The notes below the pieces were generated by a model, which was not told the DNA's origin, did no database searches, and saw only the letters and a list, made by a program, of their open reading frames with translations. Shown here one piece after another: positions 13,871-27,074 of a stretch of DNA of 64,000 nucleotides (positions are counted from its first letter, which is position 1; each line of letters starts with the position of its first letter). Position numbers and translations under genes: made by a program. The stretch is from assembly GCF_030384885.1 (NCBI RefSeq), contig NZ_CP128613.1, one strand, 5' to 3'. Source of the DNA: Escherichia coli. GTDB taxonomy: Bacteria; Pseudomonadota; Gammaproteobacteria; Enterobacterales; Enterobacteriaceae.

Positions 13871-16800
13871 TTATTTGATCTGCGCGTGCATTTCCTGCAC
13901 CGAAATTACTTTTTCAGTCGCATCGGCATTCAGCGCCATCGCGGTAGCGAAACCACCGTTCAGGGTGGTGTCATAATGCACTTTATATTGCAGCGCACTG
14001 CGACGAATCACGCGGGAGTCTTCAATCGCGCGACGGCCTGAGGTGGTGTTGATGATGTAGGTATATTCGCCATTCTTGATGCGGTCCTGAATGTGCGGAC
14101 GACCTTCATGCACCTTGTTCACCAAACGCGGGTTAATACCTGCTTCGCCCAGCACAATCGCTGTGCCGTGGGTCGCATCCAGCTCGAAGCCCTGTTTCAG
14201 CAGTTTTGCCGCCAGGTCTACCACGCGTTCTTTATCGCCTTCGCGCACGGAAAGCAGCGCACGACCGTGTTTCTTCATGGTGGAGTTGCTGCCCAGCTGC
14301 GCTTTGGCAAACGCTTCAGCGAAGGTGCGGCCCACGCCCATCACTTCCCCGGTAGAGCGCATTTCTGGCCCTAACAGCGGGTCAACGCCGGGGAATTTGT
14401 TGAACGGCAGCACCACTTCTTTCACCGAGTAATATGGCGGGATAACTTCTTTAGTTACGCCCTGCTCAGCCAGCGATTTGCCAGCCATCACACGCGCCGC
14501 CACTTTCGCCAGCGGTACGCCGGTGGCTTTGGAGACGAACGGAACGGTACGCGCCGCACGCGGGTTAACTTCAATCAGGTAGACTTCGTTGTTTTTCACC
14601 GCAAACTGCACGTTCATCAGACCGCGCACCTGCAATTCGAAGGCCAGTTTCTGCACCTGTTGGCGCATCACATCCTGAATTTCCTGACTTAAAGTGTAGG
14701 CTGGCAGAGAACATGCGGAATCACCGGAGTGTACGCCCGCCTGCTCAATATGCTCCATGATGCCGCCAATCAGCACCATTTCACCGTCGCAGATGGCGTC
14801 CACATCCACTTCTACCGCGTCATCGAGGAAGTGGTCCAGCAATACTGGTGCATCGTTAGACACGCTCACCGCCGTCTGGAAGTAGCGACGCAGGTCAGCT
14901 TCGTCATAGACGATTTCCATCGCCCGACCGCCGAGAACGTAAGACGGACGCACCACCAGCGGGTAACCAATCTCTTTTGCCTTCTCAACCGCCATTTCAA
15001 TAGCGGTAACGGTGGCGTTCGCCGGTTGTTTCAGTTTCAGACGGTCAACCGCATGCTGGAAGCGTTCACGGTCTTCCGCACGGTCGATAGCATCCGGGCT
15101 GGTGCCGATAACCGGTACGCCAGCGGCTTCCAGTGCGCGCGCCAGTTTCAGCGGGGTCTGACCGCCGTACTGAACGATAACGCCTTTCGGCTTCTCAATA
15201 CGCACGATTTCCAGCACATCTTCCAGGGTTACCGGCTCAAAGTAGAGGCGATCGGAAGTGTCGTAGTCAGTGGAGACGGTTTCCGGGTTACAGTTAACCA
15301 TGATGGTTTCGTAACCGTCTTCACGTAGCGCCAGCGAGGCGTGTACACAGCAGTAGTCGAATTCAATACCCTGACCGATACGGTTCGGGCCGCCGCCGAG
15401 CACCATGATTTTGTCACGGTCAGATGGGTTGGATTCGCACTCTTCTTCATAGGTGGAGTACATATACGCGGTGTCGGTGGCAAATTCTGCCGCACAGGTA
15501 TCCACACGTTTGTAGACCGGGTGCAGGTCATACTGGTCGCGTAGCTTACGGATTTCTGCTTCACGCACGCCCGCGAGTTTTGCCAGACGCGCATCGGCAA
15601 AGCCTTTGCGTTTCAGCTGGCGCAGGAAGTCAGCGTTCAGGCCAGTGATGCCCACTTCCGCTACTTTCTCTTCCAGGCGCACCAGCTCTTCAATTTGTAC
15701 CAGGAACCAGCGGTCGATATTGGTCAGATTGAAGACGCCGTCTACGGACAGGCCCGCACGGAACGCATCGGCGATATACCAGATACGCTCTGCGCCTGCG
15801 TCTTTCAGCTCGCGGCGAATTTTGGTCAGCGCTTCCGGGTCGTCGAGACTCACTTTCGGGTCGAAGCCAGTTGCGCCCACTTCCAGGCCACGCAGCGCTT
15901 TTTGCAGGGATTCCTGCTGCGTGCGACCAATCGCCATCACTTCGCCAACCGATTTCATCTGAGTGGTCAGACGGTCGTTAGCACCGGCGAATTTCTCGAA
16001 GTTGAAGCGAGGAATTTTGGTGACCACGTAGTCGATGGACGGCTCGAAGGAGGCCGGAGTACGCCCGCCGGTGATGTCGTTCATCAGTTCGTCGAGGGTG
16101 TAACCCACCGCCAGTTTCGCCGCCACTTTAGCAATCGGGAAGCCGGTCGCTTTCGACGCCAGCGCCGAAGAACGCGACACGCGCGGGTTCATTTCGATAA
16201 CAATCAGGCGACCATTTTTCGGGTTCACCGCAAACTGGACGTTGGAACCACCGGTTTCAACGCCGATTTCACGCAGTACCGCCATCGAGGCGTTACGCAT
16301 GATTTGATATTCTTTGTCGGTCAGCGTTTGGGCTGGCGCGACAGTGATGGAGTCACCGGTGTGGATGCCCATCGCATCGAAGTTTTCGATAGAGCAGACG
16401 ATGATGCAGTTGTCGTTTTTATCACGCACCACTTCCATCTCGTACTCTTTCCAGCCGATCAGCGACTCATCAATCAGCAGCTCTTTGGTTGGGGAGAGAT
16501 CCAGACCGCGGGCGCAAATTTCTTCAAACTCTTCGCGGTTATAAGCGATACCACCACCGCTACCACCCATGGTAAAGGATGGGCGAATAATGCACGGGAA
16601 GCCCACTTCAGCGGCAACTGCCAGCGCTTCTTCCATGGTGTGTGCGATACCAGAACGCGCAGTTTCCAGACCGATTTTCTTCATCGCCACGTCGAAACGG
16701 CGGCGGTCTTCGGCTTTATCAATCGCATCGGCGGTGGCACCAATCATGGTGACGCCGAACTCTTCCAGCACGCCCTGACGCTCCAGCTCCAGCGCACAGT

Positions 16801-17089
16801 TCAGCGCTGTCTGACCGCCCATCGTTGGCAACACCGCGTCCGGACGCTCTTTTTCAATAATCTTGCGTACCACTTCCCAGTGAATCGGCTCGATGTAGGT
16901 CGCATCAGCCATTTCCGGGTCGGTCATGATGGTCGCTGGGTTGGAGTTCACCAGAATGACGCGGTAACCCTCTTCGCGCAGGGCTTTACATGCTTGCGCG
17001 CCAGAGTAGTCAAACTCACACGCCTGACCGATAACAATCGGGCCCGCACCCAGAATCAGGATACTTTTTATATCTGTACGTTTTGGCAT
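13871..17089 (-). CDS. carB: Carbamoyl-phosphate synthase large subunit
   Basis: 1072-aa [35 protein letters not shown]..., two ATP-grasp halves; immediately downstream of carA. Confidence 0.97.
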
Positions 17090-17106: not shown

Positions 17107-18255
17107 TTACTTAGCGGTTTTACGGTACTGCTCAATTAACTCGATAAAGTGGTCGAACAACGGCGCTGCGTCGTGTGGACCCGGACTGGCTTCCGGGTGA
17201 CCCTGGAAGCTGAATGCCGGTTTATCGGTGCGATGAATGCCCTGTAACGTACCGTCGAACAGGGATTTATGTGTGACACGCAGGTTTGCAGGTAATGTTG
17301 CTTCATCCACCGCAAAACCGTGGTTCTGGGCGGTGATCATCACCACGTTTTTCTCCACATCTTTAACCGGATGGTTGCCGCCGTGGTGACCAAATTTCAT
17401 TTTGATGGTCTTCGCACCGCTCGCCAGCGCCAGCAGCTGATGACCGAGGCAGATGCCGAATACCGGAATGTCGGTTTCGAGGAATTTCTGGATGGCAGTA
17501 ATAGCGTAATCACACGGTGCCGGGTCGCCAGGACCGTTGGAGAGGAAGATGCCGTCTGGATTCATTTTCAGCACGTCTTCCGCAGAGGTTTGCGCCGGAA
17601 CGATGGTCAGGCGGCAGCCTCTATCCACCAACATACGCAGGATGTTGCGCTTGGCACCAAAATCATAAGCCACAACGTGGAACGGCAGCTCGTCTTCTTT
17701 CTTCGCTTCTGGCAGGCCGCCGGTCAGCGTCCAGCTCCCTTGTGTCCAGCTATAGGATTCTGCGGTGGTCACTTCTTTTGCCAGATCCATGCCGTTCAGA
17801 CCTGGGAACGCGCGGGCTTTTTCTAACGCCAGCGCCGCATCCGGGTTATCGCCTGCGATAATGCAGCCATTCTGTGCGCCTTTCTCACGCAGTAAACGCG
17901 TCAGCTTACGGGTATCGATATCAGCAATCGCCACGATGTTATGGCGTTTAAGGTAAGAAGAGAGGTCTTCGGTATTACGGAAGTTGCTGGCAATCAGCGG
18001 CAGGTCGCGAATCACCAGACCTTGTGCATGTACCTGAGAAGATTCTTCATCGGCGTCATTAGTGCCGACATTGCCAATATGGGGATAAGTAAGAGTAACG
18101 ATTTGACGAGAATAGGAAGGATCAGTGAGGATTTCTTGATAACCGGTCATTGAAGTATTGAAAACGACTTCCCCAACCGCCGAACCTGTTGCCCCTATGG
18201 CCCGACCGTGAAACTGGGTTCCGTCTTCCAGAACCAATAGCGCTGACTTAATCAA
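17107..18255 (-). CDS. carA: Carbamoyl-phosphate synthase small (glutamine amidotransferase) subunit
   Basis: Protein continues as [20 protein letters not shown]...; the start I recall for CarA corresponds to a TTG codon (reverse of 18253-18255), giving exactly 1149 bp; ORF-track start at 18282 is an upstream GTG. Confidence 0.93.
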
Positions 18256-18710
18256 AACACCCTCCAGAGAATATTCACTCACTTTATTTGCATATTAATT
18301 CACAATGATGACGTAAATCAATGCAAATCTGCTTACCGACGAATTTCTGGCAAACGGCGGCATTCTGGAGATATGGGCGCTAAAAGTCAACTTAATGGCG
18401 GGATTTTTTATATTATTTTATAGCTCATGCATGTTTTACAGGCATTAAGCGACAAAAAGATCATATAACCCGTTCTGGAAAACGCTTGCGCAGCAAGAAG
18501 ATTGCATAAAATCAAAACGCGTAGAAAAAAGTGGACCAAATGGTCAAAATTTACATTAAAACAACAAAAACAGAAGCGAAAACATGTTATTTTTAGCATG
18601 TTCCATGCTTTTATAAATAAAAAACTCAAAATAAAAGGGCTAAAAATTAAAGCCCTTTACAATCAATATATTAAATATGTTATTTTTGCATCATCACAAA
18701 TGTTTTGTGG

Positions 18711-19547
<837 letters not shown>

Positions 19548-19698: not shown

Positions 19699-20613
19699 TT
19701 ACGACGCCAGAGCCAGCACCTCAGCCACCCACTGCTGGAAACCTTTCACATCCAGATCCAGCGCCACCTGCACGTTTGCAGGTTTACTCAGGCAACCATC
19801 AATATCAACAACCGTCGTGCCTGAGGTAAATTCACCCTGAGTTTCCACTGCCACAAAACACGGTTTGAGAGTGAACAGGTCCGGGCGCACCAACCAGGCG
19901 ATGGCGCAGAGATCGTGCATTCGCAGGCCGCTCTGCATACTGCCGCTACGGTAGTGGCTAAACAGGGCGTGTAGCATTTTTCCGGTGCGATTCAACTCCG
20001 GCAAAGTAGCGAGATAGTCAGGAGTTAATATTGCCTGATTGGTGACATCCAGACCGCACATAACGATTTCGATGCCGCTACGGAAGACACAGGCTGCCGC
20101 TTCTGGATCGGCAGCGATATTAAACTCGGCGTTTGGCGTACAGTTGCCGCGTCCGGCAGAACCGCCCATGATCACCAGACGGCGAATATGCGGTTTGCAT
20201 TCCGGGCATTGTGAAAGTAACAGCGCAATATTGGTTAACGGGCCGATGGCTACCAGCGTAACAGGCTCAGGCGCACGCATCAGGGCATCACGAATCGCCA
20301 GAAACGCCGGTTGCTCCAGTGGCTTTCGGTTGTGCTCAACAAAGTCGTAGCCAGCCATTCCCGATTCACCGTGTACAGATGCCGCATTACGCGGTGCGCG
20401 TACCAGCGGCACAGCGGCTCCCTGGGCGAGCGGAATATCCGCATTCCAGAAATGCAGCAGTTGCAGGGCGTTGCGGGTAGTTTTCTCAACCGAAACATTG
20501 CCCGCGACGGTGGTCATCAGTTGCAGGTCGAGTTCGGGGGCAAAAATCGCGGCGGCAATGGCGACCGCATCGTCAATACCGGGGTCTGTATCGAGGAAGA
20601 TAGGTAAACGCAT
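19699..20613 (-). CDS. rihC: Non-specific ribonucleoside hydrolase RihC
   Basis: 304-aa ORF with N-terminal nucleoside hydrolase aspartate motif ([12 protein letters not shown]); 915 bp; synteny. Confidence 0.93.

Positions 20614-26789: not shown

Positions 26790-27074
<285 letters not shown>

Follow-up and report, generated by a model that had tools for sequence, protein, structure and literature searches.

The dapB–carA intergenic region of an Escherichia coli genome: its correspondence to the published carAB control region and the UUG start codon of carA

The DNA analysed here (hereafter the window) is a stretch of 64,000 nucleotides from an Escherichia coli genome (contig NZ_CP128613.1 of assembly GCF_030384885.1). 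On its minus strand the genes rihC (19699–20613), dapB, carA and carB (13871–17089) follow one another in the order found in E. coli K-12. The dapB frame ends with a TAA stop codon at 18713–18711, carB adjoins carA 17 nt downstream of it, and a spacer of exactly 455 bp (18256–18710) separates dapB from carA. The initial annotation had described this spacer as a very AT-rich upstream region of 455 bp, and both the length and the composition were borne out: its GC content is 33.0% compared to 49.5% for the window, which places it at the 3.5th percentile of all 455-bp windows, and in the distal half of the spacer GC content falls to 26%. The features located in the interval are listed below.

18711–19532, minus strand: dapB coding sequence (273 aa)
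18619–18658, minus strand: dapB intrinsic terminator, a stem-loop (18658–18634) and a U-rich tail
18679–18642, unstranded: IHF footprint (−324 to −287), published positions mapped onto the window
18661–18673, plus strand: IHF consensus match AATCAATATATTA (WATCAANNNNTTR match), in the IHF footprint
18415–18635, unstranded: stretch of about 220 bp predicted to wrap around hexameric PepA (−280 to −60), published positions mapped onto the window
18547–18532, minus strand: RUT box TTGACCATTTGGTCCA (RutR), −192 to −177
18491–18476, minus strand: PUR box GCGCAAGCGTTTTCCA (PurR), centred at −128.5
18459–18462, unstranded: Dam site GATC, its A at 18461 corresponding to −106 (published as 106 bp upstream)
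18356–18390, minus strand: P1 core promoter (promoter scan, sequence, published map)
18390–18385, minus strand: P1 −35 element TTGACT, with a 17-bp spacer to the −10 element
18367–18362, minus strand: P1 −10 element CAGAAT
18361–18356, minus strand: GCCGCC discriminator
18355, minus strand: P1 transcription start G, anchor of the site map and first base of ES003
18355–18350, minus strand: GTTTGC (published as 5′-GUUUGC-3′), site of UTP-sensitive reiterative transcription (stuttering), preceded by GCCGCC
18303–18355, minus strand: Rfam ES003 (RF02750), the first 53 nt of the P1 transcript (87.4 bits)
18302–18289, minus strand: ARG-box palindrome TGAATTAATATGCA overlapping the P2 −10 region (motif search)
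18282–18280, minus strand: in-frame GTG nine codons upstream of the TTG, rejected as an alternative carA start
18261–18265, minus strand: Shine-Dalgarno (SD) sequence GGAGG in the context CTGGAGG, with a 5-nt spacer to the carA TTG
18255–18253, minus strand: carA initiation codon TTG (sequence, RefSeq, literature, orthologue conservation)
17107–18255, minus strand: carA coding sequence, 382 aa, glutamine-hydrolysing carbamoyl-phosphate synthase small subunit (ORF, PDB, Pfam, RefSeq)

A hairpin likely terminating dapB had been proposed at about 18640–18665. The literal hairpin string, AAAAGGGCTAAAAATTAAAGCCCTTT, was indeed found, but at 18633–18658, 7 nt away from the proposed position. Read on the minus strand, the hairpin begins 52 nt past the dapB stop codon and consists of an 8-bp stem (AAAGGGCU/AGCCCUUU) with four G-C pairs and a 9-nt loop, followed by UAUUUUGAGUUUUUU. 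It therefore has the parts of an intrinsic terminator, i.e., a GC-containing stem-loop and a U-tract shortly past the stop codon and on the dapB strand. A consensus terminator scan of the region returned no match, since the scan covered loops of at most 8 nt and the loop of this hairpin exceeds that limit. The folding energy is not exceptional for an AT-rich stretch (z = −1.07), and the terminator call is thus based on anatomy and homology and not on folding statistics.

The homology comes from DapZ, an Hfq-dependent sRNA produced from the dapB 3′UTR in Salmonella and Klebsiella. The Rfam DapZ model (RF02551) matched the dapB 3′UTR of the window with 31.1 bits (E = 0.0014), below the gathering score of 56, and confidence in the alignment was limited to the terminator hairpin and the tail. 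In a Klebsiella control the model scored 83.9 bits directly after the dapB stop codon, and in K-12 no match was obtained at an E of 0.01 or better. The Escherichia dapB 3′UTR shares with DapZ its position right after the dapB stop codon, the terminator hairpin and the U-tail, but its 5′, seed-containing half has diverged. By Rfam's criterion it is not a DapZ member; its sequence is that of a diverged, sub-threshold relative. The alignment of the hairpin and U-tail to the DapZ model, and a Klebsiella orthologue that scores above the gathering threshold at the same place, support the assignment of the hairpin as the dapB terminator.

Since the hairpin shares its 5′ arm and loop with the IHF footprint, and the same region contains the weak DapZ match, the hairpin could instead be chiefly a DNA feature of a nucleoprotein complex with IHF and PepA, or it could form the 3′ end of a separate, DapZ-like sRNA. 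We consider this improbable. A U-run follows the GC-cored stem on the dapB strand, 52 nt past the stop codon, while on the opposite strand no T-run follows the hairpin. The DapZ score lies under the gathering score with only the terminator half aligning well, and K-12 gives no hit where Klebsiella gives a strong one. Nor are a terminator and the other roles of a hairpin mutually exclusive, as in Salmonella DapZ uses the dapB terminator. We retain the reading of 18658–18619 as the intrinsic terminator of dapB.

The regulatory sites upstream of carA were mapped relative to the P1 start. As an anchor we used the G at 18355, which corresponds to K-12 position 29551, lies 100 nt before the carA TTG and is also the base with which Rfam ES003 begins. 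The P1 position was cross-checked via the GATC at −106, the RUT box and the PUR box. With this anchor, every motif placed relative to P1 by the Charlier 2018 review (PMC6245113) was found in the window at its published distance, in agreement with the earlier suggestion that the spacer contains the known tandem, multiply regulated carAB promoters. What is expected of an E. coli-type carAB control region is present: the P1 hexamers, the discriminator and a start consisting of G followed by UUU; P2 with its ArgR operator; and four further sites at their published distances. Together these elements account for essentially the whole 455 bp, with positions +1 to +100 forming the leader with P2, positions −1 to −324 the P1 operator, and the other 31 bp plus an overlap the dapB 3′UTR and terminator.

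According to the same review, ArgR binds over P2, and the P1 and P2 starts are 67 nt apart. The P2 start at about 18288 was obtained by arithmetic only (P1 start plus 67); it lies 3–4 nt from the best −10 hexamer, which is unusually close, and the placement may be off by a few bases. Binding of PepA, IHF, RutR, PurR and ArgR, like the mapping of the promoters, is taken from the literature by way of the review; in the window these proteins are predicted to bind and to regulate transcription as well.

Comparison with other genera points to the same elements. In a four-genus alignment, islands of conservation coincide with the P1 −10 element, a TTTGCCA sequence, the ARG operator and the SD block TATTCTCTGGAGG. 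The ARG-box palindrome is invariant in Klebsiella and Proteus, and the RUT box is identical in Klebsiella. The PUR core reads GCAAGCGTT in the Escherichia and Klebsiella rows and GCAAACGG in Proteus, and the GATC site is kept in Escherichia and Klebsiella and is GATA in Proteus. A riboswitch candidate known as the Breaker-lab "carA motif" was also considered; it is a motif of Polynucleobacter-type betaproteobacteria and has no bearing on this locus.

The ES003 model matched the 5′ end of the P1 transcript with a score far above its gathering score of 37 bits, passing the threshold over model positions 1–53 of 53. The window is 100% identical to it over all 53 positions, beginning at P1 +1, with no difference. 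Rau et al. 2015 place ES003 at K-12 29551–29603 with an experimentally known transcription start site, find its level reduced 133-fold in stationary phase, and report no terminator for it. On the evidence of that paper, ES003 could be an independent sRNA or no more than the 5′ end of P1 transcripts, whether stable or abortive. The drop in stationary phase fits the description of P1 in the review as a stringently controlled promoter.

We next turn to the start of carA. The carA frame is open from an upstream in-frame TAA at 18297–18295, and the longest ORF runs from the GTG at 18282–18280 down to 17107, while the annotated gene is nine codons shorter. The initial annotation had favoured the TTG at 18253–18255 and noted that the nearest upstream in-frame GTG would add nine residues; reverse complementation and frame analysis confirmed the latter. 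The TTG has a GGAGG at functional spacing before it and no better-placed start, as expected of a UUG-initiated gene. The RefSeq/PGAP annotation gives a 1149-nt, TTG-started, 382-aa CarA in K-12 and in strain 2013C-4282, which is 100% identical at this locus.

Database structures lead to the same codon. Six distinct CarA sequences in the PDB align from the TTG-encoded residue, which is residue 10 of the GTG-extended translation. Five of the six chains (e.g. 1cs0_B and 1bxr_B) are full length and begin with MIKSALL, and the alignment of 1a9x_B begins one residue later, at residue 11 of the extended translation. The chains match from residue 1 with E values of about 1e-260 (1cs0_B, E = 9e-261, two substitutions). 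In the TTG-started protein, Pfam recognises CPSase_sm_chain (PF00988) at residues 7–132 (180 bits) and, C-terminal to it, the class-I glutamine amidotransferase domain GATase (PF00117) at residues 196–372 (196 bits). Historically, Piette et al. in 1984 reportedly left both UUG and AUU open as the carA start. Weyens et al., in Eur J Biochem in 1985, are said to have found that carA synthesis starts at the UUG codon and that the native CarA N-terminus is Met-Ile-Lys; for the N-terminus of the protein we rely on this literature. The Charlier 2018 review (PMC6245113) gives TTG as the carA initiation codon. With RefSeq, the six PDB sequences, the review, the SD sequence and the orthologues in agreement, translation of carA starts at TTG 18255–18253, which is read as fMet and is preceded by a strong SD (CUGGAGG, 5-nt spacer). 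The proposed start is correct but was already known, the question having been settled in the 1980s. Folding of the leader gave a minimum free energy structure in which the SD pairs with the early coding sequence (z = −1.87, with 8 of 200 shuffles equally good).

Initiation wholly or partly at the GTG, which would add the nine residues MSEYSLEGV, deserves consideration as the codon is in the carA frame with no stop codon between it and the TTG, is kept in place in K-12, Klebsiella and Proteus, and lies in a stretch into which tblastn alignments reach in Klebsiella and Proteus. Yet RefSeq, the PDB sequences and the Charlier 2018 review all give TTG and not GTG. The GTG is without a Shine-Dalgarno sequence, being preceded by ATATGCAAATAAA. 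It is only about 6 nt from the 5′ end of the P2 mRNA (about 18288), compared to 33 nt for the TTG, and P2 transcripts would therefore be unable to use it in a conventional way. The nine codons between GTG and TTG include the SD of the TTG, and the differences between Escherichia and Klebsiella in these codons are both non-synonymous (GAA to GGA and GGT to GAT). In Aeromonas, Amphritea and Acinetobacter the GTG is absent with no alternative upstream start, and in Aeromonas and Amphritea an in-frame stop codon lies 5–6 codons upstream of the conserved TTG. We therefore consider initiation at the GTG very improbable; a minor second initiation there on P1 transcripts is formally conceivable, given the conservation of the codon in Klebsiella and Proteus.

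The ATT at 18252–18250, directly after the TTG, is a still less probable initiator, although its distance of 8 nt from the SD is also acceptable and E. coli does have a gene initiated at AUU (infC). The second carA codon is ATT in Enterobacterales, AAT in Aeromonas, ACA in Amphritea and AGC in Acinetobacter while the TTG is invariant in all of them, which rules out ATT as a conserved initiator; the 382-residue PDB chains begin with M-I-K, that is, Met from TTG followed by Ile from ATT, and the Charlier 2018 review names TTG, not ATT. The TTG at 18255–18253 remains the start of carA.

Orthologous carA starts were taken from chromosomes mis-filed in PLSDB. TTG is present at the aligned start in five further genera: Klebsiella, Proteus, Aeromonas, Amphritea and Acinetobacter. 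The SD before it is CTGGAGG in Klebsiella, Proteus and Aeromonas, GGGAGG in Amphritea and CAGGAG in Acinetobacter, and the TATTCTCTGGAGG block is invariant in Escherichia, Klebsiella and Proteus. A study of A. baumannii likewise treats carA as TTG-started (PMC12525168). Elsewhere the carA start is ATG (Neisseria and Legionella) or GTG (Ralstonia).

A broader sample was obtained by scanning metagenomes for a conserved CarA protein block, which yielded 120 loci. Start codons of carA, carB and dapB were picked by one rule: within 10 codons of the start aligned with E. coli, the candidate with the best SD was taken, then the nearest. A proteobacterial-type set was defined as the 74 metagenomic loci in which the N-terminal region of CarA is at least 55% identical to that of E. 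coli. In this set the carA start was TTG in 34 loci, GTG in 33, ATG in five and uncallable in two, so that TTG or GTG was found in 67 of the 72 callable loci. In the same loci carB started with ATG in 57 cases and GTG in five, with TTG in none (57/62 ATG), and dapB with ATG in 18, GTG in five and TTG in one. The difference between carA and the two control genes taken together was highly significant (Fisher p = 2e-26). The homology-anchored carB and dapB replaced an earlier control composed of all long ORFs, which was too noisy: only 46% of its starts were ATG, a result inflated by spurious ORFs and the SD-first picking rule.

In 52 of the 74 loci there is no in-frame ATG between the upstream stop codon and the conserved core, making a non-ATG start unavoidable, and the carA result is therefore independent of the picking rule. 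It also holds after clustering at 70% identity (51 clusters; TTG 22, GTG 25, ATG 4). The mean SD match was 4.9 nt for carA genes with TTG versus 2.6 nt for carA genes with ATG and 2.8 nt for carB genes with ATG. In the more distant metagenomic loci carA starts mostly with ATG (25 of 40 callable). Among the genome-scan matches listed for the general CarA pattern EDGT...MTGYQEI, the outgroups had ATG (Flavobacteriaceae) and TTG (Selenomonadaceae).

These data lead us to suggest, tentatively and with somewhat less than even confidence, that in proteobacterial carAB operons a weak carA start codon is an ancient trait that has been conserved and selected, and not a quirk of E. coli. The suggestion is based on carA UUG or GUG in about 90% of the proteobacterial-type loci sampled, unavoidable in at least 70%, versus AUG in about 92% for the co-transcribed carB. 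If it is true, the weak start implies a translational set-point or a regulatory function, and the candidate functions would be the CarA:CarB stoichiometry or initiation sensitive to IF3 or to growth rate. We infer that the output of CarA, as compared with that of the AUG-started carB, is set by the combination of a weak codon and a strong SD. The carAB operon governs the first committed step common to arginine and pyrimidine synthesis, and carA would be a naturally occurring example well suited to asking why weak start codons persist. We found no discussion of conserved non-AUG carA initiation in the open-access literature searched. The breadth of non-AUG initiation at carA versus AUG at carB is the sole element of our analysis that goes beyond this literature, and it is a modest comparative observation.

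Taken as a whole, the interval is the Escherichia dapB–carA intergenic region, an already known and fully characterised carAB control region, and we have very little doubt that the established account applies to it: the hairpin terminates dapB, P1 and P2 drive the transcription of carAB with the regulation described in the literature, and a UUG with a strong SD initiates CarA. For this account our analysis contributes the identity and spacing of motifs, the agreement of annotation and structure databases, and the conservation of UUG and SD across species. In the predicted course of events, transcription of dapB would stop at the intrinsic terminator 18658–18619, which the IHF site overlaps. 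The AT-rich operator of about 220 bp would wrap around PepA and bear the RutR and PurR boxes and the Dam site. P1, starting at G 18355, would be controlled by pyrimidines, purines, ppGpp and UTP-sensitive stuttering at GTTTGC, and P2, 67 nt downstream, would be repressed by ArgR. Translation would then begin at the carA UUG (18255–18253), read as fMet and driven by the strong SD.

For the window itself this matters little, because one of the best-studied bacterial control regions has been re-identified. The result has some use as an annotation check, since longest-ORF callers would wrongly add nine residues to CarA, and as a positive control, since a divergent Escherichia lineage is seen to follow the published site map to the base. 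The extent of this divergence was assessed with a 651-bp query (18150–18800), which is 100% identical to E. coli strain 2013C-4282. Identity of at least 95% to this query was found in only seven of 5425 complete E. coli genomes, the other 5418 falling in the 90–95% band. Over the proximal 215 nt, all 5425 E. coli genomes having the locus reach at least 95% identity.

The closest known system is the carAB control region of K-12 (carAp1/carAp2, the b0031–b0032 spacer at 29196–29650), which has the same 455-bp length. Nucleotide identity between the window and K-12 is 97.2% for carA, 96.7% for dapB and 92.3% for the spacer. The two are 100% identical from −64 (relative to P1) to the first carA codons, leader included, and P1, GCCGCC, GTTTGC, P2 with the ARG operator, the PUR and RUT boxes, GATC, the IHF site and the dapB terminator stand at the same distances. 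The 35 substitutions in the spacer all lie upstream of −65, and 20 of them fall in a patch from −272 to −222 (18577–18627), which is within the PepA-wrapped DNA and outside the RutR, PurR and IHF boxes; the 651-bp query covers this patch.

As a gene with a weak initiator, carA resembles rpsT (UUG) and infC (AUU), where the start codon is likewise read by fMet-tRNA and compensated by the SD; the TTG-started rpsT is itself present in the window (26811–27074, plus strand). To our knowledge, no autoregulatory role of the infC (IF3) kind has been reported for the carA UUG. What sets carA apart from rpsT and infC is that proteobacterial-type lineages have retained its UUG/GUG codon class alongside an AUG in carB.

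Among the proteobacterial-type carAB loci within the metagenome set (L132-L251), the carA start codon is TTG or GTG in 67 of the 72 callable cases, and the adjoining carB starts with ATG in 57 of 62. In 52 of 74 proteobacterial-type loci carA can only begin at a codon other than ATG, and the longest Shine-Dalgarno matches in such loci are those of TTG starts. Outgroup loci were recovered by scanning genome contigs with a general CarA pattern. Among the matches listed, carA of Selenomonadaceae also has an apparent TTG start (LKGKLILEDGT; L007, L008, L021, L030, L047 and others), with in-frame stop codons located a few codons upstream of it; carA of Flavobacteriaceae, among the same matches, starts with ATG (MKYQ...).

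Two individual loci were recorded separately. In L164, an Enterobacterales-like carA on metagenome contig Ga0157365_10000816, an in-frame ATG stands where E. coli has its GTG (18280-18282), nine codons upstream of the conserved Shine-Dalgarno sequence and TTG; gene callers may pick this ATG as the carA start in the L164 lineage. L131 is a carA copy on a 34.6-kb record of Pasteurella multocida labelled as a plasmid (NZ_CP020348.1). It has a TAG codon after a good Shine-Dalgarno sequence at the aligned start position, and the tblastn match to it is broken into four pieces, the copy being either a pseudogene or the product of a low-quality assembly. Orthologous loci were also obtained from PLSDB records that are labelled as plasmids and are evidently whole chromosomes of 2-5 Mb (CP125156.1, NZ_OL790812.1, NZ_AP026896.1, NZ_CP119140.1 and others).

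Besides carA, the window contains a probable rpsT, a second classic UUG-initiated gene, with an adjoining reading frame:

26811-27074, plus strand: 87-aa ORF with a TTG start, at the position where rpsT (ribosomal protein S20) is expected
27561-29033, plus strand: 490-aa ORF adjoining rpsT

Of all 455-bp stretches in the window, the one from 27338 has the lowest GC content (23%); it covers the upstream region and the 5' end of the 490-aa ORF. A Pfam search with its product revealed no domain above threshold and only a weak pentapeptide-repeat match. Since this ORF adjoins rpsT, at a site where K-12 presumably carries IS1, it is probably an accessory gene.

Comparison of the dapB-carA spacer with K-12 and with Rfam models revealed three further features:

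18577-18627, no strand: patch heavily diverged from K-12 (20 of 51 positions differ, no indels)
18627-18707, minus strand: sub-threshold DapZ match in the dapB 3'UTR (31.1 bits vs a gathering score of 56)
18303-18355, minus strand: match to the ES003 sRNA model (RF02750, 87.4 bits)

The diverged patch lies within the PepA-wrapped part of the P1 operator, between the IHF and RutR sites, and contains small palindromes in the window (AGCATG-GAA-CATGCT and AACATG...CATGTT). Of 5425 complete E. coli genomes, no more than 7 reach 95% identity to the window over 18150-18800. A 651-bp query across the region matched E. coli strain 2013C-4282 at 100%. K-12, in contrast, differs by about 3% in both carA and dapB, and by about 8% at the 3' end of rihC. 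The window may thus come from a divergent lineage of Escherichia or contain a recombined segment. In the annotation of NZ_CP027579.1, locus tags pass from C6996_RS13685 (dapB) to C6996_RS13675 (carA), with RS13680 missing among the listed features; this tag may belong to a dropped or hidden feature located between dapB and carA.

The DapZ alignment to the dapB 3'UTR is good in the terminator half only. A Klebsiella locus (L123:476-553) scored 83.9 bits with the same model, and no DapZ match was found in K-12 at E ≤ 0.01.

The ES003 match corresponds exactly to nucleotides 1-53 of the carAB P1 transcript, its 3' limit being located just ahead of the ArgR operator and the P2 -10 element. ES003 is reported to lack a terminator and to be 133-fold down in stationary phase (Rau 2015). 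Instead of being an sRNA in its own right, it may represent a 5' fragment of the transcript, either stable or abortive.
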